Part shown: piece after piece, positions 10,399-64,000 of the stretch
How positions within the stretch are numbered: the stretch's first letter is position 1
Layout of the letters: each line of letters begins with the position of its first letter
NCBI GenBank assembly: GCA_046543335.1
Contig: JBKGZP010000001.1
Location: 12,234-76,233 of the forward strand
Source of the DNA: Halobacteriales archaeon
GTDB taxonomy: Archaea > Halobacteriota > Halobacteria > Halobacteriales > SKSH01
DNA length: 64,000 nucleotides
Direction of reading: 5' to 3'
The notes under the pieces: model-generated
Told to the model about the DNA's origin: nothing
Databases searched by the model: none
Seen by the model: only the letters and a program-made list of their open reading frames with translations
Program-made: the position numbers and the translations under genes

Positions 10399-11793
10399 CT
10401 ACTCGCCCTGCGCTTCCTCGCGGGCGTGCAACTTGGCACGCTCGCGGGCGCTCGGGTTGACGGACTCCTTGAAGGGGACGGTGGCGACCTTCGCGTAGAC
10501 CGGCTCGCCCGGCTCTTCGGCGTACTCGTCGGGCAGGTGGACCTGGAACTCGACGTCTGGTGCGTCGTCGACCTTGTAGGCGCGGTCGTCGAGCGGCACC
10601 CCGAGGGCCTCGAGCTTCTCGGCGGGGACGAACCCCAGCGCGATGTTCGTCTCGAGGTCGGGGTTGTACCACGGCGACGTCACGTAGCCGCACTCCTCGC
10701 CGGTCTCCGGGTCGGAGATGAGCCAGAAGTCCGGGGCGTAGTCGTGGATGGGCTCGCCGGCCATCTTGAGCCCCACGAGCTTCAGGTTGAACGGGTACTC
10801 GCCGTCCTCGATCAGGGCCTTCTGGCGCTCGAGCTCCTCCTTCCCGACGTAGTCGGCCTCCTTGTCGTCCGGGACGTGGTACCCCAGGTTGACCTGGAAC
10901 GGGGAGGTCTCGTGGTCCATGTCCTGGCCCCACGAGAGGATGCCGGCGGCGATCCGGCGGTGGTGCCCGGGCGCGATCACCTGGCCGCCGTGGTCCTTGA
11001 CCGCGTCGGCGACCGGGGTCCAGACGTCCTCGGCGTACTTCATCGAGTCGAGCACGTACACCTCGAACCCCTTCTCGCCGGAGAAGCCGGTCTGGCTGAC
11101 GAGGACGTCTCGGCCGTTGATCTCCGCCTCCATCAGACCGTAGTACGGGATGTCGCTGACCGCCTCGCCGACGAGGTCGATCATGACGTCCTCCGAGCGC
11201 GGCCCCTGGATCTGCATGGGCGAGACGTCGATCTCGTCGATCTCGACGTCGTAGCCCTCACCGACGTTGACCCCCTGGAGCCAGAGCATCAGCGTCGAAT
11301 CGGAGATGGAGAACCAGAACTCGTCCTCGGCGAGGCGCAGCAGGATCGGGTCGTTGAGGATGCCGCCCTTCTCGTTGCACAGGATGACGTACCGCCCGTG
11401 CATCGGCTCGATCTCCGTGGCGTCGCGCGTGATGACGTAGTTGACGAAGGCCTCGGCGTCCGGCCCCTTGACGCGGATCTGGCGCTCGACCGCGACGTTC
11501 CACAGGGTGACGGCGTTGACGAGGGGGTCGTACTCGGCCATCGCCCCACCGTCCTCGGGTTCGACGTACCCCCGCGGGTGGTACATGCGGTTGTACACGG
11601 TCGCCCGCCAGGCGCCCTCCTCGACGGAGAGGTGCCAGAAGGCCGACTTGCGTACCCGCGTCGAGATCAGCATCTCGATGCCGGGATCGCCCGTCTGCCG
11701 GAGGTTGCGTGGAACGAGTCGGTCGGACTGGTCCACGCTCGGGTGGTTGGGGTGGTCTTCCTGCTCCTGTTGGGCCGCGGGATTTTCGGCCAT
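10399..11793 (-). CDS. Stand-alone GcvT-family THF-dependent methyltransferase, DmdA-like
   Basis: R.RKS, TVYNRM, LWNVAVERQI, NDPILLRL.E.EFWFSISDS, QIQGP, TGFSGEKGFEVY, RIAAGILSWGQD; no gcvH/gcvP in the window. Confidence 0.85.
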   Translation of the reverse strand: MAENPAAQQEQEDHPNHPSVDQSDRLVPRNLRQTGDPGIEMLISTRVRKSAFWHLSVEEGAWRATVYNRMYHPRGYVEPEDGGAMAEYDPLVNAVTLWNVAVERQIRVKGPDAEAFVNYVITRDATEIEPMHGRYVILCNEKGGILNDPILLRLAEDEFWFSISDSTLMLWLQGVNVGEGYDVEIDEIDVSPMQIQGPRSEDVMIDLVGEAVSDIPYYGLMEAEINGRDVLVSQTGFSGEKGFEVYVLDSMKYAEDVWTPVADAVKDHGGQVIAPGHHRRIAAGILSWGQDMDHETSPFQVNLGYHVPDDKEADYVGKEELERQKALIEDGEYPFNLKLVGLKMAGEPIHDYAPDFWLISDPETGEECGYVTSPWYNPDLETNIALGFVPAEKLEALGVPLDDRAYKVDDAPDVEFQVHLPDEYAEEPGEPVYAKVATVPFKESVNPSARERAKLHAREEAQGE

Positions 11794-11878
11794 TACGACG
11801 AAAGTACGCGCCGAACACGCCTTAAACTCACATATTCGCTCCCGATTCGCGAGGGACGCGCGCTCGACCGATCGACAC

Positions 11879-12136
11879 TCAGAAGTCGTGGTCGGTCGGG
11901 GAGTAGTGCGCCCGGTGGACGGCGAAGAAGCCGAAGACGCCGACGGCCAGGAGCGGGAGACCGATGAGCGGGTTGATGAGCACGAGGACGACCCCGATGC
12001 CGGTCAGGATCACCGCCGCGATCTGGGCCTTCCGCTTGGGGCGGTTGCCACACTCCGGGCACTCGTCGACCGACGGGTCGATCGGCTCACCGCAGCGCTT
12101 GCACGGTTCGAGCGTCCCTGGTCCACCTCGGTCCAT
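11879..12136 (-). CDS. Small zinc-ribbon membrane protein
   Basis: CKRC-x10-CPEC followed by a hydrophobic hairpin; 85 aa. Confidence 0.75.
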   Translation of the reverse strand: MDRGGPGTLEPCKRCGEPIDPSVDECPECGNRPKRKAQIAAVILTGIGVVLVLINPLIGLPLLAVGVFGFFAVHRAHYSPTDHDF

Positions 12137-12231
12137 CCTCGAGCCGGGCGGACGTACGACGGGGGGTGGGTTAAGCGCTTGCGACCACCGCCGTCGACGT
12201 CCCTTTGGGCCTCCGGCTCCTGGTGGCGGCC

Positions 12232-12441
12232 ATGACATCGCGCACGATCCGCGTCGGAGGCATGGCCTGCGAGGGCTGCGAGCAGCGGGTACGGTCGGCG
12301 CTCGAGGCGCTCGACGGCGTCGAGCGGGCGCTCGCTGACCACGAGGCGGACCGCGTCGAGGTCGCGTTCGACGCGTCGCTGGTCGCCCCAGATGACCTCG
12401 CGGACGCCATCGAGGCCGTCGGCTACGAGCCTCGCGGGTGA
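12232..12441 (+). CDS. Heavy-metal-associated (CopZ-like) chaperone
   Basis: GMACEGC motif, C-terminal IEAVGY; 69 aa. Confidence 0.9.
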   Translation: MTSRTIRVGGMACEGCEQRVRSALEALDGVERALADHEADRVEVAFDASLVAPDDLADAIEAVGYEPRG

Positions 12442-12455
12442 CACCCGGCGGGACA

Positions 12456-12962
12456 ATGCGGTTCAAGGCGGTCCCGAGGCCGCCGGGGACGGTCGCCGAC
12501 CTCGAGGTGGCCTGGCGCGCGGTCGGCCTGGTGCCGGAGGGCGAGCGAAGCTGCTGTCAGCGGATCGCCGACCGGCTCGATGCCGTCGACGTGGACGAGG
12601 CCCGCCGGTGGCTGGCGCTCATGCGCGCGCTCGGCATCGTCGAACGCGGCCCCTCGGGGTACACGCGCACCCGGTCGCTACCCGCGCCGGCGACGCTCCG
12701 CGAGCGATTTCGCGATCGCGTCTTCGGTGTCGAGGAGGTCCTCCAGGCGGCCGACGGACGGGTCACCGAGGCGTCGGCCTTCGAGGCGCTCGAGCCCCAC
12801 GTGCCGCCGTGGGAGCGCCATCGGGCACCGAACGCGTGGCGCGATCGCTGGCGACGCCGCACTGGGGACCTCCTCGCGTGGGGCGCCCTCCTCGGGCTGG
12901 TCGAGCGAGACGGCGACACCTTCCGGGTCCCCCCGAACGTTATTGGTGAGTCGAACGCGTAG
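12456..12962 (+). CDS. Conserved haloarchaeal hypothetical protein (winged-helix-like)
   Basis: MRFKAVP...SCC.R, WL..MRALG, VP.WER motifs; typical codon usage. Confidence 0.7.
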   Translation: MRFKAVPRPPGTVADLEVAWRAVGLVPEGERSCCQRIADRLDAVDVDEARRWLALMRALGIVERGPSGYTRTRSLPAPATLRERFRDRVFGVEEVLQAADGRVTEASAFEALEPHVPPWERHRAPNAWRDRWRRRTGDLLAWGALLGLVERDGDTFRVPPNVIGESNA

Positions 12963-12972
12963 GGGTCCGCGG

Positions 12973-14759: not shown

Positions 14760-14760
14760 C

Positions 14761-26690: not shown

Positions 26691-27524
26691 TCAGTCGAGC
26701 AATGGGCGGCGCCAGCGCTCGAGGTCGCCGACCTGGTTGAACGAGTAGAGGTGTACCCCGGCGATGTCGAGGCGGTCGTCGTCGACGTGGGGGGCCAGCC
26801 CCTCGACGAGGGCGTCGGGCTCGTACCGACCCTTGCCGCCGAGGAGCTGGCGGACCATCCCGAGGATGCCCGTCGTCTTGCGCACGAACCGGACGGACTC
26901 GCCGACGCCGACCTTCCGAGCGATGCCGAGCATGCGCTCGGTGCGCATCACCCCGGGGACGCCGATATAGACGGGTAGATCGACGCCGAGGTCGCGGATC
27001 GCGTCGATCCAGTCCACGATCGCCCCGGAATCGAAGCACAACTGGGTGACGATGTACGTGGCGTGGGGGGCCTTCTCGAGGAGGGCCTCATCCAACGTCT
27101 CGTCGTCGATGATGGGATGCCCCTCGGGGTAGCCCGTGATACCCAGCTCGGGGAAGTCGAGCCCTCGCGCATCGAGATCCGTCAGGAGTGCGTAGGACGA
27201 GTCGTACGGTCCGACGGGTTCCTCGTTGTCGCCCCCTGGCACGAAGACGTCATCGATGCCAGCCGTCTGGAACCGCTCGACGAATTCCTCGAGACGATCC
27301 TCGCTTTCGACCGCCCGGGCCGCCACGTGCGGGACGACGTCGAAACCCCGCTCGGCCGTGGCGACCGACTGGTCGACCGTCAGGTCGAGGCCCTTCTCCG
27401 GGGAGGCGGTGATCGCCACCGTCGCCCCCTCGGGGAGGTCCTCGAGGGCTCCATCGAAGCCCATGAATGGCAGCAGCTCGAAGCGCGGATCCGCCAGGAG
27501 TCGGCCGGTTTGGGTGCTCACCAT
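26691..27524 (-). CDS. metF: Methylenetetrahydrofolate reductase
   Basis: FELLP, PHVAAR, GGD, GYPEGHP, VTQLCFD, HLYSFNQ. Confidence 0.88.
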   Translation of the reverse strand: MVSTQTGRLLADPRFELLPFMGFDGALEDLPEGATVAITASPEKGLDLTVDQSVATAERGFDVVPHVAARAVESEDRLEEFVERFQTAGIDDVFVPGGDNEEPVGPYDSSYALLTDLDARGLDFPELGITGYPEGHPIIDDETLDEALLEKAPHATYIVTQLCFDSGAIVDWIDAIRDLGVDLPVYIGVPGVMRTERMLGIARKVGVGESVRFVRKTTGILGMVRQLLGGKGRYEPDALVEGLAPHVDDDRLDIAGVHLYSFNQVGDLERWRRPLLD

Positions 27525-27572: not shown

Positions 27573-28103
27573 TCACTCGTCCCGCCGGCGTCGGTAGGTG
27601 GCGACCTCGAGGTCGCCGAGGGGGTCGCGGTCGACGAGCTCCCAGACGTCGGGGTCGATCGTCGGGAAGCGAGCGTCGCCCTGGTACCTCCCAGGGACCT
27701 CCGTGATCACGAGCCGATCGGCCTCGGGGAGGAACTGCTCGTAGACGGACTGGCCCCCGACAACGTAGGCAACCTCTGCGGCCGTCGCCGCGGCGCGTTC
27801 GCGGGCCGATCGGCGGCTCGAGACCACCTCGACCGCCGTCTCGTCGTCGGGGACGTGGTCCTCGTCGACAACCGCCGCCGGTTCGCGCCGGCTCAGGACC
27901 AGGTTCGTCCGCCCGTCGAGCGCGTGCCCGAGTCGATCCACGATGGCCTCGTACGTGCGTCGCCCCATGATGACCGGAGCCCCGAGGGTGAGGCGACGGA
28001 AGTGCCGGAGGTCCTCCGGGTGGTGCCAGGGCATCTCGCCCTCGTCGCCGATCGTCCGATCCTCGGCGACGGCCGCGACGATCACCAGCTCGAGCCCGGC
28101 CAT
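27573..28103 (-). CDS. folA: Dihydrofolate reductase
   Basis: IG..G.MPW..PED..HF, VIMGRRTY, GGQSVY, GDARFP; TGATG overlap with thyA. Confidence 0.93.
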   Translation of the reverse strand: MAGLELVIVAAVAEDRTIGDEGEMPWHHPEDLRHFRRLTLGAPVIMGRRTYEAIVDRLGHALDGRTNLVLSRREPAAVVDEDHVPDDETAVEVVSSRRSARERAAATAAEVAYVVGGQSVYEQFLPEADRLVITEVPGRYQGDARFPTIDPDVWELVDRDPLGDLEVATYRRRRDE

Positions 28104-29098
28104 CACTCGGCCACGGCGAACCGGATGCGTGGATGGGGGTCGTAGCCCTCCAGCTCGACGTCCGCGGGACCGAGCTCGTCCAGCTGCTTGTCGACGATCC
28201 GAACCGTGGGTCGCTCGCGTGGCGCTCGCGTGAGCTGGGTGAGGAGCTGGGGGACGTGATCGTAACCCCGCTCGTCGGCCGGCTCGGCGGGGGCCTCCCG
28301 CTCGATCCATCGGCGCACCGCCCGGTAGTCGTCCGATTCGCTCGCCTCGGCCAGACGCGACCGGAACGCCTCGAGGTTGTCGCCGTACCAGGCGCCCCGA
28401 TCCCCCTTGCCGCAGTAGATGTGCGCGTCGGTCAACGAGTGGGCGAAGGTTCCCGGTTCGAACCCAGTCTCCCGGGCGATCACCAGGAGCAAGAGCGAGT
28501 AGGCGGCGATGTTGAACGGCACGCCGACGGCGACGTCAGCCGAGCGCTGCTCAAGCTTGAGGTTGAGTCGGTCACCCTGGACGTTGAAGGTATAGGTGTA
28601 GTGACACGGGGGGAGCTTCGAGACGGCGGCGTTCGCGGGATGCCACGCGCTGACGACGATCCGTCTCGAATGCGGCTCGTCGCGCAGCTTCCGAAGGACG
28701 TAGGCGAGCTGGTCGAACGTGCCCTCGTCGGTGACGCATGGATGGTCCGCGTCGGGCCAGGCCTCGCCGGGGAGTCGATCCTCCTCTGGGGGGATTGGGT
28801 ACCGTCGCCAGAAGCGACCGTACGCCGTCTCGAGACGGCCCTCCTCGTCGGCCCACTGGTCCCAGATCGAGGTCTGTTCGCGCAGCTCCCGGATGTGCTC
28901 CTGTCCGGAGAGGTACCAGAAGAACTCGTACAGGAGGGAGTCCCAGTACATCGCCTTCGTCGTCAACAGCGGGAACCCCTCGGCGAGATCGACCTCGTAC
29001 TCGTAATGGAACGTGGAGATCGTGTCGACGGCCGTCCGGTTCGGCTTGTACCCTCCCTCTCGGAGCACCGACTCGACGAGCGTCAGGTAGGTTCGCAT
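28103..29098 (-). CDS. thyA: Thymidylate synthase
   Basis: FPLLTTK, SRR..VSAW, LPPCH, QRSAD...GVPFNIA.Y, DAHIY. Confidence 0.95.
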   Translation of the reverse strand: MRTYLTLVESVLREGGYKPNRTAVDTISTFHYEYEVDLAEGFPLLTTKAMYWDSLLYEFFWYLSGQEHIRELREQTSIWDQWADEEGRLETAYGRFWRRYPIPPEEDRLPGEAWPDADHPCVTDEGTFDQLAYVLRKLRDEPHSRRIVVSAWHPANAAVSKLPPCHYTYTFNVQGDRLNLKLEQRSADVAVGVPFNIAAYSLLLLVIARETGFEPGTFAHSLTDAHIYCGKGDRGAWYGDNLEAFRSRLAEASESDDYRAVRRWIEREAPAEPADERGYDHVPQLLTQLTRAPRERPTVRIVDKQLDELGPADVELEGYDPHPRIRFAVAE

Positions 29099-29372: not shown

Positions 29373-29552
29373 ATGACCAGATCTCACCGAAGCCGTATCT
29401 TCCCGAACGGTCCCGCATCGACCCTGTACGTAACGATCCCGGCCCAAGTCGCCTCGGACTCGCAGTTCCCGTTCGCCCCCGAAGACGAGGTCGTCGTCAG
29501 CATCGACGGCGACCGGGTCGTCGTGTCGGCGTCGGCGGTGGATGGTGAATGA
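29373..29552 (+). CDS. Small AbrB/SpoVT-like swapped-hairpin protein (59 aa)
   Basis: Manual translation MTRSHRSRIFPNGPASTLYVTIPAQVASDSQFPFAPEDEVVVSIDGDRVVVSASAVDGE; ATGA overlap with the next gene; not in ORF track. Confidence 0.75.
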   Translation: MTRSHRSRIFPNGPASTLYVTIPAQVASDSQFPFAPEDEVVVSIDGDRVVVSASAVDGE

Positions 29553-31747
29553 ACGCCATCGCGAAGATCGCCGACCCTCGACCGGATCTGATCCGCGTCC
29601 TCCACGTCGACGACGACGCGGCGTTCACGGCGCTCTCCAGCGAGGTGCTCGGTCGCATCGACGACCGGTTCCTCATCGACTCCGCGACCCGCGTGGACGA
29701 GGCGCTCGCCATGCTGGAGGATGGGACGTTCGACTGCGTGGTCTCAGACTACGACATGCCAGGTCGCAACGGGGTCGAGTTCCTGGAGGTTGTCCGAGCC
29801 CGGCACGCGGACCTTCCCTTCATCCTCTTCACCGGCAAAGGCTCCGAATCGGTCGCCAGTGAAGCCATCTCCGCGGGCGTGACGGACTACCTGCAAAAGG
29901 AGCGTGGGCTGGACCAGTTCGCCATCCTCGCCAACCGGGTCACGAACGCCATCGACCACCACCACTCGTCGCGGATCGTCCGGCGGAGCGAGCGGGGGCT
30001 GCGTCGCATCGTCGACGCGCTCCCGCACCTGTTGTTCGTCGCCGACGGGCACGGCACTCTCCGGATGGTGAATCAACCCCTGGCCGCCCTGTTCGGGGTA
30101 CCGGTCGACGAGCTCGAGGGGACCAAGCTCGCGGCCCTGGTCGGAGACGATCTCGCGCGTCCGTTGCTGGCGGACATCCAGGCCGTCATCGAATCCGAAG
30201 AGGGCCGGTGTCTGGACCGACTGGAGGTCGAAGCGGCCGACGGTCACATTCACCTCCTAGAACCCCGGCTTGAGCCGTACGACACCGAAGACGCGACGGG
30301 GGCCGTCCTCGGTATCGCGATCGACGTCACCGAGGACGATCGACGTGCGCGCAATCACGAGCGCACCCGCGAGCGGATGGAGTTGGCCCTCGAGGCGACC
30401 GGCTCGATCATCTTCGAGCTCGATCTCCAAACCGGTGATGTGGTCCGGTACGGCGATCTCGAGGGGAATCTCCACCTGGTTGCGGAGGAGGTGCCGACGT
30501 TGGCCGACTACCTGGAGCGCGCCATCCACCCCGATGACCGCGACGCCGTTCGGGAACACTTCGAACGCCTCCAATCGGGCGATCTCGAGGCGGTGACCCT
30601 ACGGTACCGAACGATGCCCGCTGAGGGTGTCGTCCGCTGGGTGAGTGCGAACGTCACCGTGCGGCACGACGAGCGCGGCGAACCCCGCTGGGCCGTGGGG
30701 ATCGCCCGGGACGTCACCGAGGCCGAACGGCACGAACGTGAGTTGGCGGAGACCCGCGAGCGGTTCCGGAAGATCCTCGCGTACTCGTCCGACTTCGTCA
30801 TGATCGTCGACGAGGACCAGACGGTGAGCTACGTCTCGCCCTCGGTCGAACACGTGATGGGCTACACCCCCGCCGAGATCCACGGAACCGATGCCATGGC
30901 GTTCTCCCATCCGGACGACCTGGAGGACGCCATGGCGGCGTTCGGAGGACTGCTCACGGAGCCCGAGGCGGAGGCCCGCCTCGAGGAGCGCTCTCGAACG
31001 GCCGACGGCGAGTGGCGCTGGGTCGAAGTCCGCGGGCGGAACTACCTCGACGATCCGCACATCGGTGGGTTGCTGGTCAACGTCCGCGACATCGACGAGC
31101 GCAAGCGACGCGAGACCGAACTCGCCCGACAGAACGATCGGCTCGAACAGTTCGCGAGCGTCGTCTCCCACGACCTTCGAAACCCGCTGAACGTGGCCAC
31201 CGGACGCCTCTCGATGGCCCGAGAGGCCGCCGACACCGATGACCTCGCCGCCGTCGATGGCGCCCTCGATCGGATGGCCGCGCTCATCGACGACCTGCTG
31301 GTGCTGGCCCGGCAGGGCCGACACGTCGGCCAGCGGGCGACGGTGACGCTCGGGACGGTGGCCGAGCGCTGCTGGCGGAACGTGGAGACGGCCGACGCGA
31401 GCCTCGTCGTCGAGGCGGACGTCGACATCTCGGCCGATCGGAGTCGGCTCCAACAGCTGCTCGAGAATCTCATGCGGAACGCGGTCGAGCACGCAGGTCC
31501 GTCAGCGATGGTGACGATCGGTGCCCTCGAGGACGGCTTCTTCGTCGAGGACGACGGTCCCGGCATCCCATCTGCGGAACGAGCCGACGTCTTCGAGCCA
31601 GGGTACACTACGTCGGACACGGGGACGGGCTTCGGCCTGGCCATCGTGCGGGAGATCGCCGAGGCCCACGGGTGGACGGTCGCCGCGACGGAGGGGCGCA
31701 CCGGCGGGGCCCGCTTCGAGTTCACGGGGATCGACGCGGTCCGATAG
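29549..31747 (+). CDS. Hybrid sensor kinase REC-PAS(x3)-HisKA-HATPase
   Basis: VLHVDDD, VSDYDMP, HPDD PAS motifs, VSHDLRNPL, NAVEH, DDGPGI, GTGFGL. Confidence 0.93.
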   Translation: MNAIAKIADPRPDLIRVLHVDDDAAFTALSSEVLGRIDDRFLIDSATRVDEALAMLEDGTFDCVVSDYDMPGRNGVEFLEVVRARHADLPFILFTGKGSESVASEAISAGVTDYLQKERGLDQFAILANRVTNAIDHHHSSRIVRRSERGLRRIVDALPHLLFVADGHGTLRMVNQPLAALFGVPVDELEGTKLAALVGDDLARPLLADIQAVIESEEGRCLDRLEVEAADGHIHLLEPRLEPYDTEDATGAVLGIAIDVTEDDRRARNHERTRERMELALEATGSIIFELDLQTGDVVRYGDLEGNLHLVAEEVPTLADYLERAIHPDDRDAVREHFERLQSGDLEAVTLRYRTMPAEGVVRWVSANVTVRHDERGEPRWAVGIARDVTEAERHERELAETRERFRKILAYSSDFVMIVDEDQTVSYVSPSVEHVMGYTPAEIHGTDAMAFSHPDDLEDAMAAFGGLLTEPEAEARLEERSRTADGEWRWVEVRGRNYLDDPHIGGLLVNVRDIDERKRRETELARQNDRLEQFASVVSHDLRNPLNVATGRLSMAREAADTDDLAAVDGALDRMAALIDDLLVLARQGRHVGQRATVTLGTVAERCWRNVETADASLVVEADVDISADRSRLQQLLENLMRNAVEHAGPSAMVTIGALEDGFFVEDDGPGIPSAERADVFEPGYTTSDTGTGFGLAIVREIAEAHGWTVAATEGRTGGARFEFTGIDAVR

Positions 31748-36191: not shown

Positions 36192-36767
36192 TCAGGCGGT
36201 CGACCGCGAGGTCTCGCCGAGGCGCCACAGGGCCCGCTGCAGGTCGACGAGGTCGACGCCGACGCGGTCGGCGTGCTCCCGGCAGATGCGGTGATAAGCG
36301 TCGTACGTGGCGACGTCGGGGGTGTCGGGGTACGGCCGGAGGACGAGGTGGGCCGCCTCAAGACCCGCCCACTCGCGCGGACCCATGACGACGTCCACCG
36401 TCGGCGCGAGGAAGAACAAGATCGCCGTCGCCTCCTCGAGGCCGACGCCCCGGAGGTCGGTCAGGTGGCCGAGGCGATCGGGCAGCGCCTCGGCGTCGAG
36501 CGCCGCCTCGACGGCCGGGAAGAGGATCGCCCCGGGGTTGTCCCTGAAGGCAGCCTCGACGCGCGCGCGACGCCCGCGGTGGCGGTCGTCGAGGTACCGG
36601 CGATGGTACCACCGGACGATCCACTCCAGGTCCCGCCAGAGCAACTCGCCGTCTCGTGCGGCACCCGGCAGCGTCTCGAGGCGCTCTCGCTCGACCATGG
36701 CGAACGGCTCCTCGCGCTCGTATGCCTCGACGAGCTCGGCCACGCGGTCCGCCGTGAGGTCGGTCAC
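36192..36767 (-). CDS. Hypothetical protein with a helix-hairpin-helix-like motif
   Basis: LTDLRGVGLEEATAILFF, DLQRALW. Confidence 0.7.
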   Translation of the reverse strand: MTDLTADRVAELVEAYEREEPFAMVERERLETLPGAARDGELLWRDLEWIVRWYHRRYLDDRHRGRRARVEAAFRDNPGAILFPAVEAALDAEALPDRLGHLTDLRGVGLEEATAILFFLAPTVDVVMGPREWAGLEAAHLVLRPYPDTPDVATYDAYHRICREHADRVGVDLVDLQRALWRLGETSRSTA

Positions 36768-52400: not shown

Positions 52401-52523
52401 GCAGGCACCCCCCTCTTCGGTCGCCGAACGGGGGCCGACGCGGGGAGGAACCGTACATCACAGATATATCCATCATAAATTTTATTGTTTGTTCGGGTGA
52501 AGCCATCTGCAGGAGGGCCACCA

Positions 52524-52949
52524 GTGTACGACAACATCCTCATCGCGACCGACGGCAGCGAGATCGCCAAGATCGCTGCCGAGCACGGCATCGAACTCGC
52601 CAAGGCCACTGGGGCCACGGTACACGCGTTGTACGTGGTCGAGACCCAGGCGCACTACATCCTGACCGTGGGCCTCGGCGACGAGGACATGGCCGAGTAC
52701 CGCGAGTACGGCGAAGACGTCGTCGAGAACGTCGTCGAGGTCGCCTCGGACACAGGTATCGACGGCGTCGGCGTCGTGAAGTCCGGCGGCGTGGCCGACG
52801 AGATCGTCGAGTACGCCGAGGAGCACGACGTCGACCTGATCGTCATGGGCGCCACGGGCCGCAGCGCCGTCGACAAGTACCTGATCGGATCGACCGCCGA
52901 GAAGGTGGTGCGCACCGCCGAGTGCCCGGTCCTGACGATCCGAGAGTAG
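52524..52949 (+). CDS. Universal stress protein
   Basis: GTG start after GGAGG; ILIATDGS, MGATGR, IGSTAEKV. Confidence 0.9.
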   Translation: MYDNILIATDGSEIAKIAAEHGIELAKATGATVHALYVVETQAHYILTVGLGDEDMAEYREYGEDVVENVVEVASDTGIDGVGVVKSGGVADEIVEYAEEHDVDLIVMGATGRSAVDKYLIGSTAEKVVRTAECPVLTIRE

Positions 52950-53064: not shown

Positions 53065-54885
<1,821 letters not shown>

Positions 54886-55684: not shown

Positions 55685-56905
55685 TTGCCATCGGATGCGG
55701 GCGACGCGCCGGGGGAGTCCGCCCTGGAGGTACTCTTCTACCACACCGAACGGATTCGGTTCGTCTACTGGCGGCAGTTCTCCGGGGCGAAGCCCACCGT
55801 CGGCCTCGTCGGTATCGTCGCCATCGTCGCCTTCATCACGGGCCTTTCGAACCTCAGCCAGCCCACCGTCGCCATGGAGGGGCCGGTCGCGGCGGTCGTC
55901 GACGTGCCGGAGGGGCTGGTACGAATCTGGGGCGTCGTCTTCTCGTTCTTGCTCGGCGGCCTCGTGGTGGGACTCAACCGCCGAAAGCGCGTCGTGTGGT
56001 ACGTCACCGTCGCGGTGTTGCCGCTCGCAGGATTGCTCCCGCTCGTCACGTTACAGGTCACCGACGTCCTCCTCCTGTCGCTGGTGGCGGTGGCCCTCCC
56101 GCTCCTGGTCATCAACCGAAACCAGTTCGATCAGAAGGTGGAGCTGTCCCCGATCCAGATCGCTGCACTGTCGTCGATCGTGGGCGTGCTCGCGTACGGG
56201 ACCATCGGCTCGTACGTCATGCGCGAGCAGTACATCGGCATCGAGAACTGGACGGACGCGCTTTATTACGTCATCGTGACTATCGCCACGGTGGGCTATG
56301 GCGACGCGACCCCGCTCACTCAGGAGACCAAACTGTTCACGCTGTCGTTCATCGTCATCGGAACGGGCGCGTTCACCGCCGCGATCGGCTCGTTGCTCAT
56401 CCCCGCCATCGAGTCGCGAATGGCGGCGGCGGTGGGCAACATGACCCCCTCCGAGTTGCGCCTCCTCGAGGACCACGTGCTGGTCCTCGGCTACGGCGAA
56501 CTCACCGACCCGATCCTGGAGGAGCTCCACGACGAGGTCGACCTCGTCGTCGTGACCCCCGACACCGAAGCCGCCTCGATGCTTCGCGACCGGGGACTCA
56601 GCGTGCTCACCGAGGACCCGACGGAGAAGGAGACCCTGCTAGACGCCCGGATCGACGTCGCCCGCGGCGTCGTCGTCGCCACCGAGGACGACGCCGAGGA
56701 CGTGCTGGCCATCATCGCCGTCAAGCAGACGAACCCGGACATCTTCATCGTCGCTGCCGCGAGCGACCGTCACCACGTCGACAAGCTCGAGGACGTCGGG
56801 GCGGACGAGGTCATCAGCCCGACGGTTATCGGTGGGCGGATGATCGGCCAGTCGGTCATCGAGCGAGCCAGGTCGCCACCGGAGACGGGCGACGACGCGG
56901 GCTGA
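55685..56905 (+). CDS. Potassium channel with RCK domain
   Basis: TVGYGD selectivity filter, C-terminal TrkA-N domain; TTG start uncertain. Confidence 0.9.
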   Translation: MPSDAGDAPGESALEVLFYHTERIRFVYWRQFSGAKPTVGLVGIVAIVAFITGLSNLSQPTVAMEGPVAAVVDVPEGLVRIWGVVFSFLLGGLVVGLNRRKRVVWYVTVAVLPLAGLLPLVTLQVTDVLLLSLVAVALPLLVINRNQFDQKVELSPIQIAALSSIVGVLAYGTIGSYVMREQYIGIENWTDALYYVIVTIATVGYGDATPLTQETKLFTLSFIVIGTGAFTAAIGSLLIPAIESRMAAAVGNMTPSELRLLEDHVLVLGYGELTDPILEELHDEVDLVVVTPDTEAASMLRDRGLSVLTEDPTEKETLLDARIDVARGVVVATEDDAEDVLAIIAVKQTNPDIFIVAAASDRHHVDKLEDVGADEVISPTVIGGRMIGQSVIERARSPPETGDDAG

Positions 56906-56977: not shown

Positions 56978-58819
56978 ATGGCCATGCACGGGGCCACGCC
57001 GGTCGAGGACGCCCTCAGGCGCCTCCTGTTACCGGTGTGCGTCCTGGCCGGGATGATCATCGTCACCGGCTTCTTCTTCCCCGAGTTCGTGGGCACGGAG
57101 GTCAGCGGCGAGGTCTGGCTGGCCCTGTCGCTCGTCTTCGTCGGCGCGGGACTGGGCTACCTCGCGCTGTTACCACTCGAAGGGGCCGGATCGGAGGCGG
57201 CCACCACGTCGGAGGAGGCCTACCTGCTGCGGATCAGGCGGCTCTCGTTCCGAGCGACGCTCGTCGAGTTCTTCGATCGGCAGGACCCGGTCGCCTTCGG
57301 GGTCCCCGTCGGGGCCATCATCGCGTTCTTCCTCGCCCAGGTGTTCGCGCCCGGGGCGACCCTCGACACCATCGAGGCCGTCCAGGCCGTCTTGCTCGGC
57401 GACCTCGGCTGGCTGTTCATCGGCCCGATGCTCCTCGCGGTCGTCGCCGCGGCGTCGTTGCTCCTGGGACCGTGGGGCGACGTCCGCCTGGGCGGTCCAG
57501 ACGCCGAACCGGTCTACACCTACCCCGTGTACTTCACCATGTTCTTTACCGCCGGCATCGCTGCGGGGATCGTCTTCTGGGGTCCGGCGGAGGCGCTGTT
57601 TCACTACGACAGCCCACCACCGTTTTTCGACGTCGAGCCGCGGTCGGACGCGGCGATCACGGCCGCGTTGACCACGGCCTTGTTCCACTGGGGTGTCTCG
57701 GCCTGGAGCGCCTACATCGCGCTCGGGGTGCCCATCGCGTACTTCGTCTACCAGCGCGACGCCCCCCTGCGCGTCTCCGCGATCCTCACCCCCTTCCTGG
57801 GTATCGACGGTCTCGACGGCGTCTGGGGCCGGCTCGTCGACGTCCTGGCCATCTTCGCCACCATCGGCGGGATCGCCACCTCGGTGGCCCTCGTCGGCCA
57901 GCAGTTCCTCACGGGGATCGCCTATCAGTGGGGTGTCGCGACGGGCGACCTCGGTCCCGTGGTGTTCGTCGCCGGCTTGTCGGCCATCTTCATCCTCTCC
58001 GCGCAAAGCGGGGTCCACCGCGGTATCCGTCGGATCGCCAACGTGAACATCGTCCTCTTCGCGCTCCTCGTCGGGCTTCTCCTCCTGTTCGCCCCTCGAT
58101 CGTTCGTCCTCGCCGAGGGTGGGACGGCGTTGGGGCGGTACGCGACCGAGTTCGTCCCACTCAGTCTCACCTTCGGCGACGAGTGGGTCACCGACTGGAC
58201 CGTCTGGAACTGGGTGTGGTGGTTCTCATGGGCGCCGTTCGCCGGTCTCTTCCTGGCGGCGCTCTCTCGCGGTCGGACGATCCGAACGGTCGTCCTCACC
58301 GGGGTGGTCGCCACCTCGCTGGTGACGATGCTCTGGTTCGTGCTCATGGGGGCAACCTCCTTGCAGCTGCAACATACCGGCGAGGTCGACGTGCTGGCGG
58401 CGATGGCCGCCGAGGGAGGGTCGGAGGCCGTCGCTGGGTTCCCGATCCTCGACGCCCTGCCCCTGAGCGAGCTGCTCATCTTCCTGTTCCTGGGGCTGAT
58501 CATCGTCTTCATGACGACCTCGGCGGACACGTCGACGTTGGCGGTGTCCATCCTCGCCTCGAGGACCCACCTCGCGCCGACGACCGGGGCGATCGTCTTC
58601 TGGGGGATCTTCCAGGGGGTGGTGGCGGTCGCGGTCCTGCTCGTCGACGGCGGGACGGCCCTGCAGACCGCGGCCGTCTTGACCGGCGGCCCCATCGCCG
58701 TGGTGGCCGTCGTCGCGCTGATCGGGCTCGCCGCGTCGCTCCGCGGGGCGGAGGATGCCGACCGAACCGCCCTCGGCGCGCTCTGGGCGATGGTACGCCG
58801 GGCCCGAGGGAGCGACTGA
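56978..58819 (+). CDS. Divergent BCCT transporter with an N-terminal 2-TM extension
   Basis: MFFTAGIAAGIVFWG, FHWG, W.WWFSWAPF.G.FLA.LSRGRT, TSAD. Confidence 0.9.
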   Translation: MAMHGATPVEDALRRLLLPVCVLAGMIIVTGFFFPEFVGTEVSGEVWLALSLVFVGAGLGYLALLPLEGAGSEAATTSEEAYLLRIRRLSFRATLVEFFDRQDPVAFGVPVGAIIAFFLAQVFAPGATLDTIEAVQAVLLGDLGWLFIGPMLLAVVAAASLLLGPWGDVRLGGPDAEPVYTYPVYFTMFFTAGIAAGIVFWGPAEALFHYDSPPPFFDVEPRSDAAITAALTTALFHWGVSAWSAYIALGVPIAYFVYQRDAPLRVSAILTPFLGIDGLDGVWGRLVDVLAIFATIGGIATSVALVGQQFLTGIAYQWGVATGDLGPVVFVAGLSAIFILSAQSGVHRGIRRIANVNIVLFALLVGLLLLFAPRSFVLAEGGTALGRYATEFVPLSLTFGDEWVTDWTVWNWVWWFSWAPFAGLFLAALSRGRTIRTVVLTGVVATSLVTMLWFVLMGATSLQLQHTGEVDVLAAMAAEGGSEAVAGFPILDALPLSELLIFLFLGLIIVFMTTSADTSTLAVSILASRTHLAPTTGAIVFWGIFQGVVAVAVLLVDGGTALQTAAVLTGGPIAVVAVVALIGLAASLRGAEDADRTALGALWAMVRRARGSD

Positions 58820-58830: not shown

Positions 58831-60096
58831 CTACTCGACGTCCGGGACCCACCCGGCCGGTCGGACGTTGGCGATGGAGGTCTCGTAGCCGGCGTCGGCG
58901 ATCGCGCCGGTGATGTCACGGGCGTGGCGCGAACCGGCAGTCTCGACCTGGAAGACGAGGTACGCCTCGCCGACGGCGAGGTCCTCGACGGCGCGCTCGT
59001 GGCGGACGGTCCGAATGTTGGCGTCGTGCGCGGCCAGGATACCCGCGAGCTCGCTCATCTTACCCGGGACGTCCCTGATCCGAACGCGCAGTTGCAGGAG
59101 TTGCTGGCGCTCGGCGAGGGCGTGATCGAGGACCATCTGCAGCATCGGCATGTCGAGGTTCCCGCCGCTGAGGACGGGGACGACCGTCTCGCCGGCGACG
59201 TCGACGTCCTCGTGCAACATCCCGGCCACCGTGACCGCACCGGCGCCCTCGACGAGTTGCTTCGCGCGCTCCAACAGCAGGAGGATCGATCGGGCGATCG
59301 CCTCGTCGGAGACCTCGACGACGTCGTCGACGTGACGGTCGATCAGCCCGTACGTCAGCTCGGAGATGCCACCCGTGGCGATGCCGTCGGCGATCGTGTC
59401 GACGGCCGCTCGCGATTGGGGGCCGCCCTTGTCGAGGCTGTCGGCGACCGTGGCCGCCGACTCGGCCTGGACCCCGACGACGCGCACCTCGGGGGCGAGG
59501 GTGGCGAGGGCGGTCGAGAGGCCGCCGATGAGGCCACCGCCGCCGATGGGGACGATCACGGTGTCGACGTCGGGGACCTGCTCGTACAGCTCGACCCCGA
59601 GGGTCCCCTGCCCGGCGACGATGAGCGGGTCGTCGTACGCGTGGACGAACGTCGCCTCCGGGTTCGCCTCGGCGAGATCGAGGGCGTGTGCCATCGCGGC
59701 CCGAAAGTCCCGGCCGTGTAGCTCGACCGCCGCACCGTATCCCCGCGTCGCGTCGACCTTCGTCTGGGGGGCGGTCGTGGGCATGACGATCGTCGAGTCG
59801 ATCCCGAGACGGGTCGCGGCGAGCGCGACGCCCTGGGCGTGGTTCCCCGCGCTCGCCGCGATGGCGTGCTCGATGCCGTCGGTCTCGAGCGCGAACCTCA
59901 GCTTGTTGTACGCGCCGCGCGGCTTGAACGAGCCCGTCCACTGGAGGTGTTCCATCTTGAGGAACACGCGGGCGTCGACCATCCTCCCCAGGGAGAAGCT
60001 GCGCTCGATGGGCGTCCGCTTGACGACGGTTCGGTCGTCGAGGCGCTCCAGTGCCGCCTCGATGTCGTCGAACCCCACCGCCGCGCCGTCGGCCAT
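58831..60096 (-). CDS. ilvA: Threonine/serine ammonia-lyase with C-terminal ACT domain
   Basis: TGSFK.RGA, ASAGNHAQG, GGGGL, TIADG, SGGN. Confidence 0.93.
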   Translation of the reverse strand: MADGAAVGFDDIEAALERLDDRTVVKRTPIERSFSLGRMVDARVFLKMEHLQWTGSFKPRGAYNKLRFALETDGIEHAIAASAGNHAQGVALAATRLGIDSTIVMPTTAPQTKVDATRGYGAAVELHGRDFRAAMAHALDLAEANPEATFVHAYDDPLIVAGQGTLGVELYEQVPDVDTVIVPIGGGGLIGGLSTALATLAPEVRVVGVQAESAATVADSLDKGGPQSRAAVDTIADGIATGGISELTYGLIDRHVDDVVEVSDEAIARSILLLLERAKQLVEGAGAVTVAGMLHEDVDVAGETVVPVLSGGNLDMPMLQMVLDHALAERQQLLQLRVRIRDVPGKMSELAGILAAHDANIRTVRHERAVEDLAVGEAYLVFQVETAGSRHARDITGAIADAGYETSIANVRPAGWVPDVE

Positions 60097-60198
60097 CACC
60101 CCCCTCGATGCGGGGGACCCTAAAAAGCATCGGTGGGTCGGATCACCGTCATTGCAGCTTGGGAAATCGGTAAATACCGACGATCGATACCCCCGAGT

Positions 60199-60549
60199 AT
60201 GCCCCCGACTGGCCTCCTGCTCGTCATCTCCGCGGTCAGCCTGGCGTTCGCTCTCTGGGGATCGATCATGGTCGTATATCCGAAGTTGGCCTTCAAGCTC
60301 GAGAACATCCTCCAGCTCCGGTCGGCGGAGTTGAGCTTCCTCGGTCTCATCATGCACAAGAGCGCCGGCGTGCTCCTGATCGCGGTGATGCTCCTCATCC
60401 CACTGTCGTACGGCCTCGTGATCCCCACCATCGCGGGACTCCTCGGGGCGGCCATCCCGCCCGTCTACTACAAGCGCACCCGTGGGGTGTTCGTGGTGCA
60501 GGGTCTCGACGGGGAGGTCACCGGTCCCGACACGTCACGGTTGGTCTAG
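60199..60549 (+). CDS. Small membrane protein
   Basis: 116 aa, about 3 TM; TAAATA box upstream. Confidence 0.65.
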   Translation: MPPTGLLLVISAVSLAFALWGSIMVVYPKLAFKLENILQLRSAELSFLGLIMHKSAGVLLIAVMLLIPLSYGLVIPTIAGLLGAAIPPVYYKRTRGVFVVQGLDGEVTGPDTSRLV

Positions 60550-61439
60550 GGGAGCGAGAGATCGATCCCTTCGAGCTCGCCGGCCGCCTTCACGGCGTTC
60601 CAAAGCAGCATCGTGATCGTCATTGGTCCGACACCACCGGGCACGGGCGTGATCGCCCCGGCGACCTCCTTGGCCCCCTCGAAGTCCACGTCGCCGACGA
60701 GTTCGTAGCCCTGCTCGTTGTCGGCCTCGACGCGGTTGACGCCGACGTCGATGACGGTCGCCCCCTCGGCGATCATGTCGGCGGTGACGAACCGCGGTCG
60801 ACCGACGGCAACGACCAGGATGTCGGCCCGACGGGTCTTCTCGGCGAGGGCTCGCGTCCGCGAGTGACAGACCGTCGTGGTGGCGTTGCCCTGGGGGCCC
60901 TTCTGGAACAGGAGGTTGGCCATCGGCTTGCCGACGATGTTCGACCGACCGACGACGACGGCGTCGGCCCCCTCCGTCTCGACGTCGGCCGCGGCGAGCA
61001 GCCGCTGGATGCCGTGTGGCGTCGCGGGCTTGAAGCGCGCCTCGCCGGCGACGAGGCGACCGACGTTCTCGGGGTGAAACCCGTCGACGTCCTTGCGCGG
61101 GTCGACGTGTTCGAGGATGGCGCCGTCGTCGACGTGGTCCGGCACGGGCATCTGCACGAGGATGCCGTGCACGTCGGGGTCCTCGTTGAGCTCGGTCACC
61201 GTCTCGAACAGCGCCTCGGCCGGCTCGTCGGGATCGATCTCCCGATGGATGCCGTTGATGCCGACCTCCTCGCAGGCCCGTTGCTTCATCGAGACGTACG
61301 TCGAGCTGGCGGGGTCCTCGCTCATGAGCACCGTGGCCAGCCCCGGCGTCACGCCGTGGCCCTCGAGCTCCGCGATGCTGTCCTCGAGGTCGGCTCGGAT
61401 GGCATCGCCGACGGCGTTGCCGTCGATGATGTCGGTCAT
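60546..61439 (-). CDS. folD: Methylenetetrahydrofolate dehydrogenase/cyclohydrolase
   Basis: YV..K, GILVQ.P, KDVDG.HP.N, GRSNIVGKP, DVG.N, TPVPGGVGPMT. Confidence 0.97.
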   Translation of the reverse strand: MTDIIDGNAVGDAIRADLEDSIAELEGHGVTPGLATVLMSEDPASSTYVSMKQRACEEVGINGIHREIDPDEPAEALFETVTELNEDPDVHGILVQMPVPDHVDDGAILEHVDPRKDVDGFHPENVGRLVAGEARFKPATPHGIQRLLAAADVETEGADAVVVGRSNIVGKPMANLLFQKGPQGNATTTVCHSRTRALAEKTRRADILVVAVGRPRFVTADMIAEGATVIDVGVNRVEADNEQGYELVGDVDFEGAKEVAGAITPVPGGVGPMTITMLLWNAVKAAGELEGIDLSLP

Positions 61440-61701
61440 GGGCGAGCCACCCCCGGGCGACGCGGATCGGTCGACGGGCGGTCGGTGGGGGTCGAGTCGG
61501 GGGAACGCGCGCGGTGCATGGTTCGCTCGCCCGCGGTGGTTGCCCGCCGGCCGGGCCCGCGGGCCGACCCGGCCGCCCGGGGGTGATGCCCCAGTGCTGC
61601 CTCCGGTCGACCCTTCGCGCGGGCGATACAAACGCCCTCCGAATCCTCGACGTCGCGCGCGGTTGGCCGCGCTTATCATCTCGGCCCCGATAGCCGGGGG
61701 C

Positions 61702-62592
61702 GTGACGCGACGGATCGGCGCGGCGATGGTCCTGCTCGCCGCCGCGGGCTTCGGCACGATCGCGGTCTTCGGCAAGCTCGGGTTCGCGGCGGGGTTGAAC
61801 AACGCGACGATGCTCGGCTTCCGGTTCCCGATCGCGGCGGTCGTGTTGTGGGCGGTCGTCCTCGCACGTCGGGGTCTGCCCCGCGTGCCTCGGCGTCAGG
61901 CCGCCGGTGCGCTCGGCCTCGGGGTGGCGTACACCGTCCTCACGGGGGCCTTCTTCTGGGGTCTGGTGTACCTCACCGCCGGTCTGGCGGTGATCACCCT
62001 CTACACCTACCCGATATACGTCTTCATCATCGCCGTCGTCCTCCTCGGGGAGGCCGTCACCCGACGGAAGCTGGTCGCGCTGCTCCTCGCCATCGGTGGT
62101 GTCGTCGTGATCGTCGGCCTCGATACGAGCGGTGTCGACCCGCTCGGCCTGGCGCTGGTGTCGGCCGCCGCCGTGGCGTACGCGGTCTACACGACGGGCA
62201 GCCGCGTCGCGGTCGCGGACCTCAACCCGGACGTGCTCTCGACGCTCGCGATGACGGGGGCGGCGGTCCTGTTTGCCGGCTACGGCCTCCTATCGGGGAC
62301 GATGTTCGTGCCATCGAGTACCGATCAGTGGGGTGTGGTCATCGGCCTCGCGTTGCTCGGAACCGCCGCGCCGATTACCCTCTTCGCGTACGGGCTCGAG
62401 CGCGTCGAGGCCAGTCGCGCGAGCGTCCTCACCACTGCGGAGCCACCGGTCGCGGTCGCCCTCGGCGTCTTGCTCCTCGACGAGAGCCTCTCCCCGGGGG
62501 TGCTGGTTGGAGGGGCGATGGTGCTGGGCGGCATCGTGCTCATCCAGTCCGAACGCACCGCCGCCCCGCCCGCGGTTGCGCCCCCGGAGTGA
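61702..62592 (+). CDS. DMT/EamA-family transporter
   Basis: About 10 TM, YTYP and EP motifs; start could be GTG 61702 or a downstream ATG. Confidence 0.88.
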   Translation: MTRRIGAAMVLLAAAGFGTIAVFGKLGFAAGLNNATMLGFRFPIAAVVLWAVVLARRGLPRVPRRQAAGALGLGVAYTVLTGAFFWGLVYLTAGLAVITLYTYPIYVFIIAVVLLGEAVTRRKLVALLLAIGGVVVIVGLDTSGVDPLGLALVSAAAVAYAVYTTGSRVAVADLNPDVLSTLAMTGAAVLFAGYGLLSGTMFVPSSTDQWGVVIGLALLGTAAPITLFAYGLERVEASRASVLTTAEPPVAVALGVLLLDESLSPGVLVGGAMVLGGIVLIQSERTAAPPAVAPPE

Positions 62593-62778
62593 TCCGACGC
62601 AGCGACCCACTCGGTGACCCCACGGCCCGCCGGAGTTCCCGAATGGCGGGGTCAATCGCAATAATTACTACAGGACCCTGAGAATTTCGACCATGGTTCT
62701 TTTGAGCACAATCATCCACCGAGACGTCGACGAGGGACGGGTCGCCCCGACGGCCGACCTCGTGCGGAGGTGGTGCCG

Positions 62779-64000
62779 ATGAGCGACCTGCCGTCGTACG
62801 CCCGGACGGTCATCCTGGGGGCGGGGATCGTCGGCAACAGCGTCGCGTATCACCTCGCCGAACAGGGTCGCGAGGACATCCTGCTCGTCGACAAGGGCCC
62901 CCTGCCGGACCCCGGCGGATCGACCGGCCACGCCTCGAACTTCATCTTCCCGGTCGAGCACTCGAAGGAGATGACGCACCTCACGCAGGACGCCCGGGAG
63001 CAGTACCGGGACATGGACGTGTTCACCGCGTCGGGCGGGATCGAGGTCGCCCGGACCGACGAGCGCATGCACGAGCTCAGGCGCCGGGTGCAGTCGGCGA
63101 AGGCCTGGGGCGAGCCCGCGGAGCTGCTCACGCCCGACGAGGTCAAGGAGCTCGTTCCCTACATCAACGAGGACATCATCAAAGGCGGCTTCTACTCGCC
63201 GGACGCGGGCGTGTGCGACCCGCTCCGCGCGGGCGAGGTCATGCGCGCCCGGGCCCAGGACAAGGGGGCGCTGGACCTCGCGCCGAACACCGAGGTCGAG
63301 GACATCGTCGTCGAGGGTGGCGCCGTGCAGGCGGTCGTGACCGACCGGGGCACCGTCGAATGCGACGAGGTCGTCATCGCCGCCGGGCTGTGGAGTCCGA
63401 AGCTCGCGAAGATGGCCGGCGTGGAGATCCCCCTGACGCCGGCGGTGCACCAGATGATCAGCGTCGGCCCGATCGACCTCTTCGAGGAGGGCGAGGGCGA
63501 GATCAACTACCCGATCGTCCGCGACGTCGACACCCAGATGTACGAGCGCCAAAGCGGCAACGACATGGAGGTCGGCTCGTACGAGCACCGGCCGATCCTC
63601 TGGGACGTCGATGACGTCCCCTCCATCGAGGAGGCGCCGCTGTCGCCGACGCAGCCGCCGCTGACGCAGGACGCCTTCGAGCCGTCCATGCAACACGCCC
63701 TCGAGATCATGCCGGAGGTGCTCGACGACCCGAACGTCGAGATCCACCACGAGATCGACGGGCTCCTGTCGGTCACGCCCGACGGGGGTCCGCTCGTGGG
63801 TCGCCTCCAGGACGTCGACGGCCTGTGGTCGTGTGCGGCGATCTGGATCAAGGAGGGTCCCGCCTTCGGCAAGGCGCTCGCCCAGTTGATGACGCGGGGC
63901 TACTCCGACATCGACATCCACGCCTCGGACGTCAACCGGTTCTACGAGTACGGCAACTCGCGCCGGTTCGTGAAGAACCGCTCCCACGAGGGCTACCAGA
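62779..64000 (+). CDS. Dimethylglycine/sarcosine dehydrogenase-oxidase family flavoprotein (partial, runs off window end)
   Basis: Manual translation: GAGIVG, GGSTGHA (FAD-linking His), AVHQM, MYERQ, TPDG.P..G; SD GGAGGTG upstream; not in ORF track. Confidence 0.9.
   Translation, partial: MSDLPSYARTVILGAGIVGNSVAYHLAEQGREDILLVDKGPLPDPGGSTGHASNFIFPVEHSKEMTHLTQDAREQYRDMDVFTASGGIEVARTDERMHELRRRVQSAKAWGEPAELLTPDEVKELVPYINEDIIKGGFYSPDAGVCDPLRAGEVMRARAQDKGALDLAPNTEVEDIVVEGGAVQAVVTDRGTVECDEVVIAAGLWSPKLAKMAGVEIPLTPAVHQMISVGPIDLFEEGEGEINYPIVRDVDTQMYERQSGNDMEVGSYEHRPILWDVDDVPSIEEAPLSPTQPPLTQDAFEPSMQHALEIMPEVLDDPNVEIHHEIDGLLSVTPDGGPLVGRLQDVDGLWSCAAIWIKEGPAFGKALAQLMTRGYSDIDIHASDVNRFYEYGNSRRFVKNRSHEGYQ

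Follow-up and report, generated by a model that had tools for sequence, protein, structure and literature searches.

We analysed a 64,000-nucleotide stretch of DNA (the window), which lies within a 98.8 kb contig (C8) of the genome of a Halobacteriales archaeon (G000; assembly of 1.76 Mb, 78.8% complete). Between positions 10399 and 64000 it carries what is probably, at about 80% by our estimate from sequence comparison, a dispersed and family-conserved gene set for importing glycine betaine and oxidising its methyl groups via tetrahydrofolate (THF). Central to it are P0001, which is encoded by the AMT gene and resembles the dimethylsulfoniopropionate (DMSP) demethylase DmdA, and the flavoprotein P0002. 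In the proposed pathway, BCCT carriers would import glycine betaine, P0001 would transfer one of its methyl groups to THF, giving dimethylglycine and methyl-THF, and a type-4-like MetF would oxidise methyl-THF to methylene-THF. P0002, coupled to electron transfer flavoprotein (ETF), would oxidise dimethylglycine, and perhaps sarcosine, yielding more methylene-THF; FolD and Fhs would convert the one-carbon (C1) unit to formate with a gain of ATP, and FdhA would oxidise formate to CO2. The remaining glycine would pass through GlyA and an ammonia-lyase to pyruvate. The activities, direction and substrate in this scheme are predictions. The initial annotation of this DNA had proposed import and methyl oxidation of betaine, dimethylglycine or DMSP; gene co-occurrence and the type of MetF support its pathway reading, and DMSP as an equally likely substrate was dropped. 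The genes of the predicted pathway are as follows (scores in bits against model cut-offs).

10399..11793, minus strand: P0001 (AMT), stand-alone GcvT-fold THF methyltransferase of 464 aa (PF01571), in the sister clade of DmdA; possible glycine betaine:THF methyltransferase
26691..27524, minus strand: MetF, short and type-4-like (PF02219, 35.9 bits); predicted methyl-THF to methylene-THF oxidase
31823..33538, plus strand: Fhs, formate-tetrahydrofolate ligase (NF010030, 825 against 652)
36884..38959, plus strand: FdhA, formate dehydrogenase alpha subunit (TIGR01591, 756 against 666), with no adjoining beta subunit gene
53065..54885, minus strand: BCCT carrier 1, with the aromatic segment WWIAWSPF
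56978..58819, plus strand: BCCT carrier 2, of the BCCT family
58831..60096, minus strand: IlvA/TdcB-type threonine/serine ammonia-lyase (TIGR01127, 434 against 379); predicted to convert serine to pyruvate
60546..61439, minus strand: FolD, methylene-THF dehydrogenase/cyclohydrolase (NF010764, 512 against 477)
62779..64000, plus strand, ending past the window at C8:77534: P0002, dimethylglycine-oxidase-family flavoprotein of 840 aa, followed by etfB and etfA

Every gene named at its position in the initial annotation proved to be an intact open reading frame. Fhs, FolD, the formate dehydrogenase alpha subunit and the threonine ammonia-lyase passed curated NCBIfam cut-offs. The betaine BCCT model NF047988 was the top model for both carriers, but their scores of 506 and 364 did not reach its cut-off of 650; the WWIAWSPF segment of carrier 1 is one that we take to be linked to betaine binding. 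The AMT, MetF, Fhs, FdhA, FolD and flavoprotein genes are single-copy in G000 and both BCCT genes lie within this stretch, while a second IlvA-type ammonia-lyase copy is located on contig C9. Two pointers of the initial annotation led to the expected genes: etfB and etfA directly follow the flavoprotein gene past position 64000, and glyA, absent from the window, is present on contig C12. About 45 genes were called in 10399-64000, about two thirds of them unrelated housekeeping genes; most of the stretch is therefore unrelated housekeeping, and the pathway genes are interspersed with it rather than joined in a single operon, as had been described.

Linkage and co-occurrence were observed in a comparison set of 200 Halobacteria genomes, each at least 90% complete. 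Orthologues of P0001 (65-83% identical) occur in 39 of these genomes, MetF in 40, Fhs in 69, and dimethylglycine-dehydrogenase-type flavoproteins, counted by PF16350, in 56 (an earlier threshold gave 44/200 and missed paralogues). MetF, Fhs and a PF16350 flavoprotein are present in all 39 AMT carriers, bearing out the suggestion that these genes co-occur and are linked across Halobacteria. The starts of AMT and metF lie no more than 5 kb apart in 28 and no more than 30 kb apart in 32 of the 39, and metF and fhs are at most 35 kb apart in 34 genomes. FdhA, which had been counted as a marker of the module, is not specific, as 143 of the 200 genomes match at threshold, paralogues included. The loci returned by the P0001 genome scan were all archaeal. 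Within 8 kb of AMT, 80 further loci contained metF (61), folD (36), BCCT (34), ilvA (28) and flavoprotein (27) genes, and compact clusters, e.g., on Haloarcula marismortui pNG700, add a FolC-FolP fusion and pabAB for folate synthesis and sometimes glyA. The dispersed gene order of the window is kept in four family relatives (G201, G203, G204 and G205); the stretch is therefore an inherited arrangement and not an accident, though no operon.

Flavoproteins cannot oxidise a quaternary amine, and a betaine pathway must therefore begin with an oxygenase or a methyltransferase. The 56 flavoprotein carriers comprise 30 genomes with AMT only, 16 with a quaternary-amine Rieske oxygenase only, nine with both and one with neither; Rieske is thus present in 16 of the 17 carriers that lack AMT (the Rieske and LigM searches used a single query each and scored a limited number of candidates per genome). 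This complementarity is significant by genome (Fisher p = 7e-7) and by genus (p = 0.009), with the caveat that kin are not independent. Carnitine monooxygenase and related entries are the nearest solved relatives of the Rieske proteins, and GbcA is their top NCBIfam model, at a score far below its cut-off. Among seven mapped AMT-negative loci (three G018 loci, L080-L082, were left out), Rieske, monomeric sarcosine oxidase-like, IlvA and BCCT genes were each found in six and GlyA in five. Judged by gene content, these loci with Rieske, flavoprotein, BCCT and ilvA are the known, textbook aerobic betaine route, and IlvA and the BCCT carriers are regular members of betaine loci, as the initial annotation had implied. 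Flavoprotein subclades and BCCT types are common to AMT-positive and AMT-negative loci; in the former, AMT and metF take the place of Rieske and the downstream genes are the same.

MttB was found in 7/200 genomes, MtgA in 3/36, and BHMT (PF02574) in none of 58 haloarchaeal genomes; 23 of the 39 AMT carriers have neither Rieske nor MttB. No Rieske-type (GbcAB) entry, BHMT, MetE domain, MttB, corrinoid, RACo or MtgA was found in the 78.8% complete G000 assembly (a stand-alone MtgD was not searched for), and PF00848 was found in none of five family relatives. Since Rieske mostly stands in where AMT is lacking and 23 of the 39 carriers have no Rieske or MttB, the first demethylation is likely the work of P0001. 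Most simply, P0001 would take over from Rieske and pass the first betaine methyl group on to THF; we hold this step, and glycine betaine as the substrate of P0001, only tentatively, at a little under even odds. Separately, four near-complete genomes (G022, G071, G073 and G119) appear to carry an orphan MttB, as neither MtgA nor a corrinoid cap domain (0/4 MttB-only genomes) was found in them.

DmdA is the nearest relative of P0001 by sequence (139 bits) and the nearest fold of its model (TM 0.85 over the target), although the model is moderate (mean pLDDT 67.4, with residues 63-75 and 277-305 below 50) and uninformative on the substrate pocket. P0001 shares with DmdA (3TFH, NF009133) the fold, the folate-site residues and a predicted redox-neutral transfer; D108, S122, E204 and Y206 of 3TFH correspond to D148, S162, E244 and Y246 of P0001, which are invariant in 41 sequences. 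However, P0001 scored 237.2 bits against NF009133, short of the cut-off of 410, and is about 95 residues longer than DmdA. The DMSP-contact Trp (W171 in the alignment of PMC7487153, mapped to W197 of 3TFH) is replaced by F237, again invariant in the 41 sequences, which is a weak test since some annotated DmdAs have Tyr. In the tree, the P0001 clade, which carries an HHRRIAAG segment, is separate (support 100/100), and its sister comprises DmdA together with the Lrp-linked roseobacter AMTs (tree of 19 rows, one of them an annotated DmdA). Dimethylsulfoniopropionate demethylase was accordingly rejected as the identity of P0001 on the cut-off, Trp197 and tree tests, and the comparative pattern favours betaine over DMSP, which had initially been placed on a par with it.

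Near-identical haloarchaeal sequences, e.g., AEM59334.1, stand in a 'non-DmdA' clade of a published alignment, and the accessible part of that paper assigns no substrate or gene context to P0001-like sequences (Hernandez et al. 2020, PMC7487153). Five further accessions in the same alignment share the P0001-type motif. Among the neighbours scanned, dmdBCD-like genes did not recur beside P0001. The five accessions are presumably bacterial. P0001 could found a glycine betaine:tetrahydrofolate methyltransferase family, a single-protein entry without oxygen or cobalamin and with close bacterial relatives, a proposal that we regard as rather less assured than an even bet. A DmdA-like AMT with 41-43% identity to P0001 was also seen in a roseobacter plasmid cassette (L055:8324-13055, L056:8322-13121) with genes for an Lrp regulator, OsmC, an enoyl-CoA hydratase and an acyl-CoA synthetase, possibly another uncharacterised demethylation pathway; viral contigs scanned with a roseobacter AMT gave no match.

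Among solved methylenetetrahydrofolate reductases (MTHFRs), MetF is nearest to 7XG9 (106 bits, others at most 31). This enzyme is the type-4 MTHFR S6MTHFR of Sphingobium, which oxidises methyl-THF and pairs with THF-dependent demethylases, and its Pro49 and Phe269 are described, in the part of the report available, as blocking NADH (Yu et al. 2025, PMC11868366). MetF keeps Pro49, Tyr267, Phe269, Glu21 and Thr46 of the type-4 enzyme. All 40 MetF genomes carry AMT or a LigM-like gene, and all 40 genomes with either carry MetF; the sole MetF genome without AMT (G067) has a LigM-like demethylase gene ~11 kb away, and LigM-like carriers (6/200 Halobacteria) have MetF in 6/6. Because MetF is nearest to 7XG9 and exactly tracks methyl-THF-producing enzymes, we infer that it disposes of methyl-THF made by AMT or LigM-like transferases, in the oxidative direction proposed in the initial annotation. 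G000 itself encodes a LigM/DesA-like O-demethylase (C31:10890-12215, L163; 309 bits to DesA against a cut-off of 800), beside genes recognised by eye as FAA-hydrolase-like and amidohydrolase-like.

P0002 matches Arthrobacter dimethylglycine oxidase (1PJ5) over its full length (509 bits) and has the DAO + FAO_M + GcvT architecture of the dimethylglycine oxidase/dehydrogenase family. His48, His225, Tyr259 and Asp552, which we take to be functional residues of the family, correspond to H51, H224, Y255 and D548. P0002 falls in a deep clade of its own, and etfBA adjoins the flavoprotein gene in G000 and relatives. Directly after etfA, genes for an aldehyde:ferredoxin oxidoreductase, YqeC and molybdenum-cofactor functions follow (C8:79333-89900, L001); the oxidoreductase gene also adjoins the flavoprotein-ETF genes in several relatives, and its product could remove leaked formaldehyde.

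The family, which is uncultured, has a further, cobalamin-linked set of genes. In G201 (C1:117145-124286, 141360-142754) and G203 (C12:36045-37490, 59023-66538), mttB, a corrinoid gene and a RACo-DUF1638-core MetE block are interleaved at three places of the stretch; G205 has an mttB/corrinoid/RACo/MetE set on another contig (C7), and G204 has mttB (C27) with metE elsewhere. The core MetE of the relatives is 342-345 aa long. MtgA was found in none of six family genomes; the branch is therefore likely to make methionine from betaine rather than to feed THF. All five branch genes are missing from G000, both at the three slots and in the rest of the assembly. Misassembly at these slots was considered and is not supported, as contigs from runs X1 and X2 (and X3 at two slots) span the joins; all these runs belong to one study, and X1 may be the source sample. 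Either the MttB branch was lost from G000 or it sits in the fifth of the genome that the assembly lacks; with no MetE-domain match, G000 may need outside methionine. That the family branch makes methionine from betaine and that G000 lost it, keeping the catabolic branch, belongs to the same tentative proposal as the new methyltransferase family.

Several points weigh against P0001 as a betaine-specific entry into an oxidative pathway. We know of no enzyme for direct methyl transfer from a quaternary nitrogen to THF, and a sulfonium is an easier methyl donor. P0001 coexists with Rieske in nine genomes and with MttB and MtgA in three; as a betaine enzyme it would thus be redundant in 12 or more genomes. 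MttB is carried by four of the five family relatives, while G000 is only 78.8% complete, and AMT and metF lie 15 kb apart in G000. MetF fails the three-motif type-4 test (Leu48-Pro49 with Arg78; Phe215/Cys219; Pro268-Phe269), with Ser for Leu48, Ala for Arg78, Ile for Phe215, Val for Cys219 and Ser for Pro268. The single PF16350 flavoprotein of G000 comes from the deep ETF-linked clade, no cut-off is reached by a candidate sarcosine oxidase on C31, and the third demethylation has no assigned enzyme. DmdA is reported, in the text available, to act with high specificity on DMSP and close analogues (PMC5395565), and Haloquadratum walsbyi, whose genomes carry a P0001-type gene, is recorded as showing no enhancement of growth by betaine in the relevant part of PMC3102087.

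The alternative that we take most seriously, though we consider it unlikely, keeps the pathway catabolic and has P0001 demethylate a sulfonium (DMSP, S-methylmethionine, dimethylsulfonioacetate or trimethylsulfonium), with the flavoprotein arm fed by external dimethylglycine, sarcosine or creatine. It would fit the position of DmdA as nearest characterised relative by sequence and fold, the precedent for sulfonium chemistry, the creatininase genes in 6/80 loci, and the other first-step enzymes beside AMT in 16/39 genomes. However, it sits poorly with the sub-threshold DmdA score, the Trp197 to Phe replacement and the separate clade with its HHRRIAAG segment; the recurring neighbours scanned include no acyl-CoA ligase, dehydrogenase or hydratase, unlike the roseobacter loci, and the near-universal Rieske in flavoprotein carriers without AMT would be left unexplained. 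Less probable is that a cobalamin-dependent MttB, missing from the incomplete assembly, performs the first step in this lineage, with P0001 serving a different methyl donor or acting as an accessory methyl carrier to THF. The four relatives with MttB all have core MetE, three of them (G201, G203 and G205) have corrinoid and RACo genes, and G204 and G205 hold these genes on other contigs; the G000 assembly is 78.8% complete. Yet methionine synthesis is indicated by the absence of MtgA from the six family genomes and by the partnering core MetE. In G000 all three slots are closed, with contigs from two to three runs of a single study spanning them, and 23 near-complete AMT carriers lack MttB.

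We also consider it improbable, slightly more so, that the folate genes are mainly anabolic and reductive, with formate or glycine as the C1 source for making thymidylate, purines and methionine. In its favour, Fhs and FolD can run either way, metF lies behind thyA and dhfr on the same strand, and the related Halodesulfurarchaeum cluster was read in 2017 as leading from formate to methyl-THF (PMC5437934). Against this, MetF is missing from 160 of the 200 genomes, exactly tracks methyl-THF-producing enzymes and is nearest to an oxidising MTHFR, and G000 showed no MetE domain that would use methyl-THF. ThyA and DHFR, initially listed with the pathway, are housekeeping genes that stand in an operon-like run with metF in this family. 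Finally, it is hardly credible that the genes are unrelated neighbours into which a pathway has been read: the housekeeping majority and the common FdhA-like genes would suit that view, but four relatives share the order, compact clusters occur in many genera, and co-occurrence is perfect. Chance clustering was rejected on the conserved order and on the probability of ~3e-8 that six genes, each placed independently, fall within the same 55 kb of a contig, a figure for genes chosen after the fact.

Oxidation of THF-bound methyl groups in SAR11 and Sphingobium, and betaine oxidation via THF in bacteria, are established. The bacterial aerobic route (GbcAB Rieske, dimethylglycine oxidase/dehydrogenase, sarcosine oxidase, GlyA and serine dehydratase) shares with G000 the BCCT carrier, the flavoprotein family, GlyA and the ammonia-lyase; its Rieske was not found in G000, where a THF methyltransferase and MetF stand instead. 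SAR11 has the same enzyme series as G000, with metF (SAR11_1264) beside an AMT (SAR11_1265) that has no assigned substrate in the part of the paper available and is not an established P0001 orthologue, plus folD, fhs and fdh (Sun et al. 2011, PMC3160333). However, SAR11 uses BHMT for the first betaine step, an enzyme found in none of the 58 haloarchaeal genomes. The ligM-metF-ligH genes of Sphingobium SYK-6 likewise combine a THF-dependent demethylase, a methyl-THF-oxidising MetF and Fhs (PMC11868366; archaea are not mentioned in its main text and searched supplements), whereas in G000 the demethylase is DmdA-like and not LigM, the MetF motifs are partial and there is no operon. MtgABC and MtgBCDE also achieve a net conversion of betaine to methyl-THF followed by MetF2, and the MttB-corrinoid-MetE branch of the relatives resembles the methionine link of cobalamin-dependent betaine methyltransferases, as far as described in PMC12478193; in contrast, no MttB, corrinoid, RACo or MtgA gene was found in G000.

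In haloarchaea, the linkage of dimethylglycine oxidase and BCCT was noted by Anderson et al. 2011, naming the oxidase and carriers only in the relevant passage (PMC3102087). The expressed cluster HTSR_1736-1752 of Halodesulfurarchaeum formicicum HTSR1 contains fdhA, fhs, metF, folD, etfAB and a GcvT-domain protein and was read, in the sections available, as formate assimilation plus glycine cleavage, with HTSR_1750 as the most abundant protein (Sorokin et al. 2017, PMC5437934). By gene order, HTSR_1750 would be the P0002 orthologue. Unlike G000, that cluster includes MttB, an MtrH-like protein and a corrinoid protein. In the literature searched, which did not cover most subscription journals, we found no description of a THF-dependent betaine methyltransferase, of the whole haloarchaeal module, of an archaeal AMT-MetF module or of the alternation between Rieske and AMT. 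What appears to be new is this variant of a pathway already known, together with one candidate for a novel enzyme activity.

The remaining genes of note in the stretch are listed below.

27573..28103, minus strand: DHFR, housekeeping, 48 bp upstream of metF on the same strand
28103..29098, minus strand: ThyA, thymidylate synthase, a housekeeping methylene-THF consumer, with a one-base overlap with the DHFR gene
29549..31747, plus strand: PAS histidine kinase, filling the slot of mttB in G201 and G203; pathway role not indicated
36192..36698, minus strand: uncharacterised protein divergent from fdhA, which it also adjoins in several relatives
52485..52949, plus strand: universal stress protein, a recurring neighbour of the BCCT carrier
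55685..56905, plus strand: potassium-channel/TrkA_N protein, recurring between both BCCT genes
61687..62592, plus strand: EamA transporter, its place conserved across the family; some other haloarchaea have it next to AMT/MetF

The proteins of G000 are acidic, their close database matches carry Halobacteriota or Halobacteriales labels, and F420 biosynthesis genes are present; cofH, cofG and cofC are adjacent to one another at window:324-3500, and the stand-alone FdhA might use F420 as acceptor. Subunits I and II of a cytochrome oxidase (window:41458-43757) match aa3 models weakly and are likely of the ba3 type; they indicate that the organism respires aerobically. A distance of 315 bp separates the end of the AMT gene from tRNA-Gly, which with tRNA-Leu occupies window:9488-10084 and may mark an old insertion site. 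Six families without a Pfam match recur in the compact clusters (L034:5970-7226, L049:16742-17764, L037:11111-11692, L050:10125-10541, L038:15338-15568 and L034:7487-7753); none was detected in G000. Two named Natrialbaceae plasmids (L058, L059) carry this MetF with folD, pabAB, folP and adjoining VOC-family genes, with purU in place of fhs.

Hypersaline habitats contain glycine betaine as a major organic solute, and its degradation by haloarchaea has been a question since the oxidase and carrier genes were described in 2011. Our comparison offers two complete candidate routes, one led by Rieske and one by a methyltransferase, and names one small soluble protein as the candidate. If P0001 acts on betaine, it would add a fourth type of entry reaction to those of GbcAB, BHMT and MtgB, and a function would be assigned to a DmdA look-alike liable to be miscounted as a DMSP demethylase. 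A new reading would also be suggested for a published, highly expressed haloarchaeal C1 cluster, and the methyl groups of the main brine osmolyte would supply about a fifth of Halobacteria with ATP and electrons.

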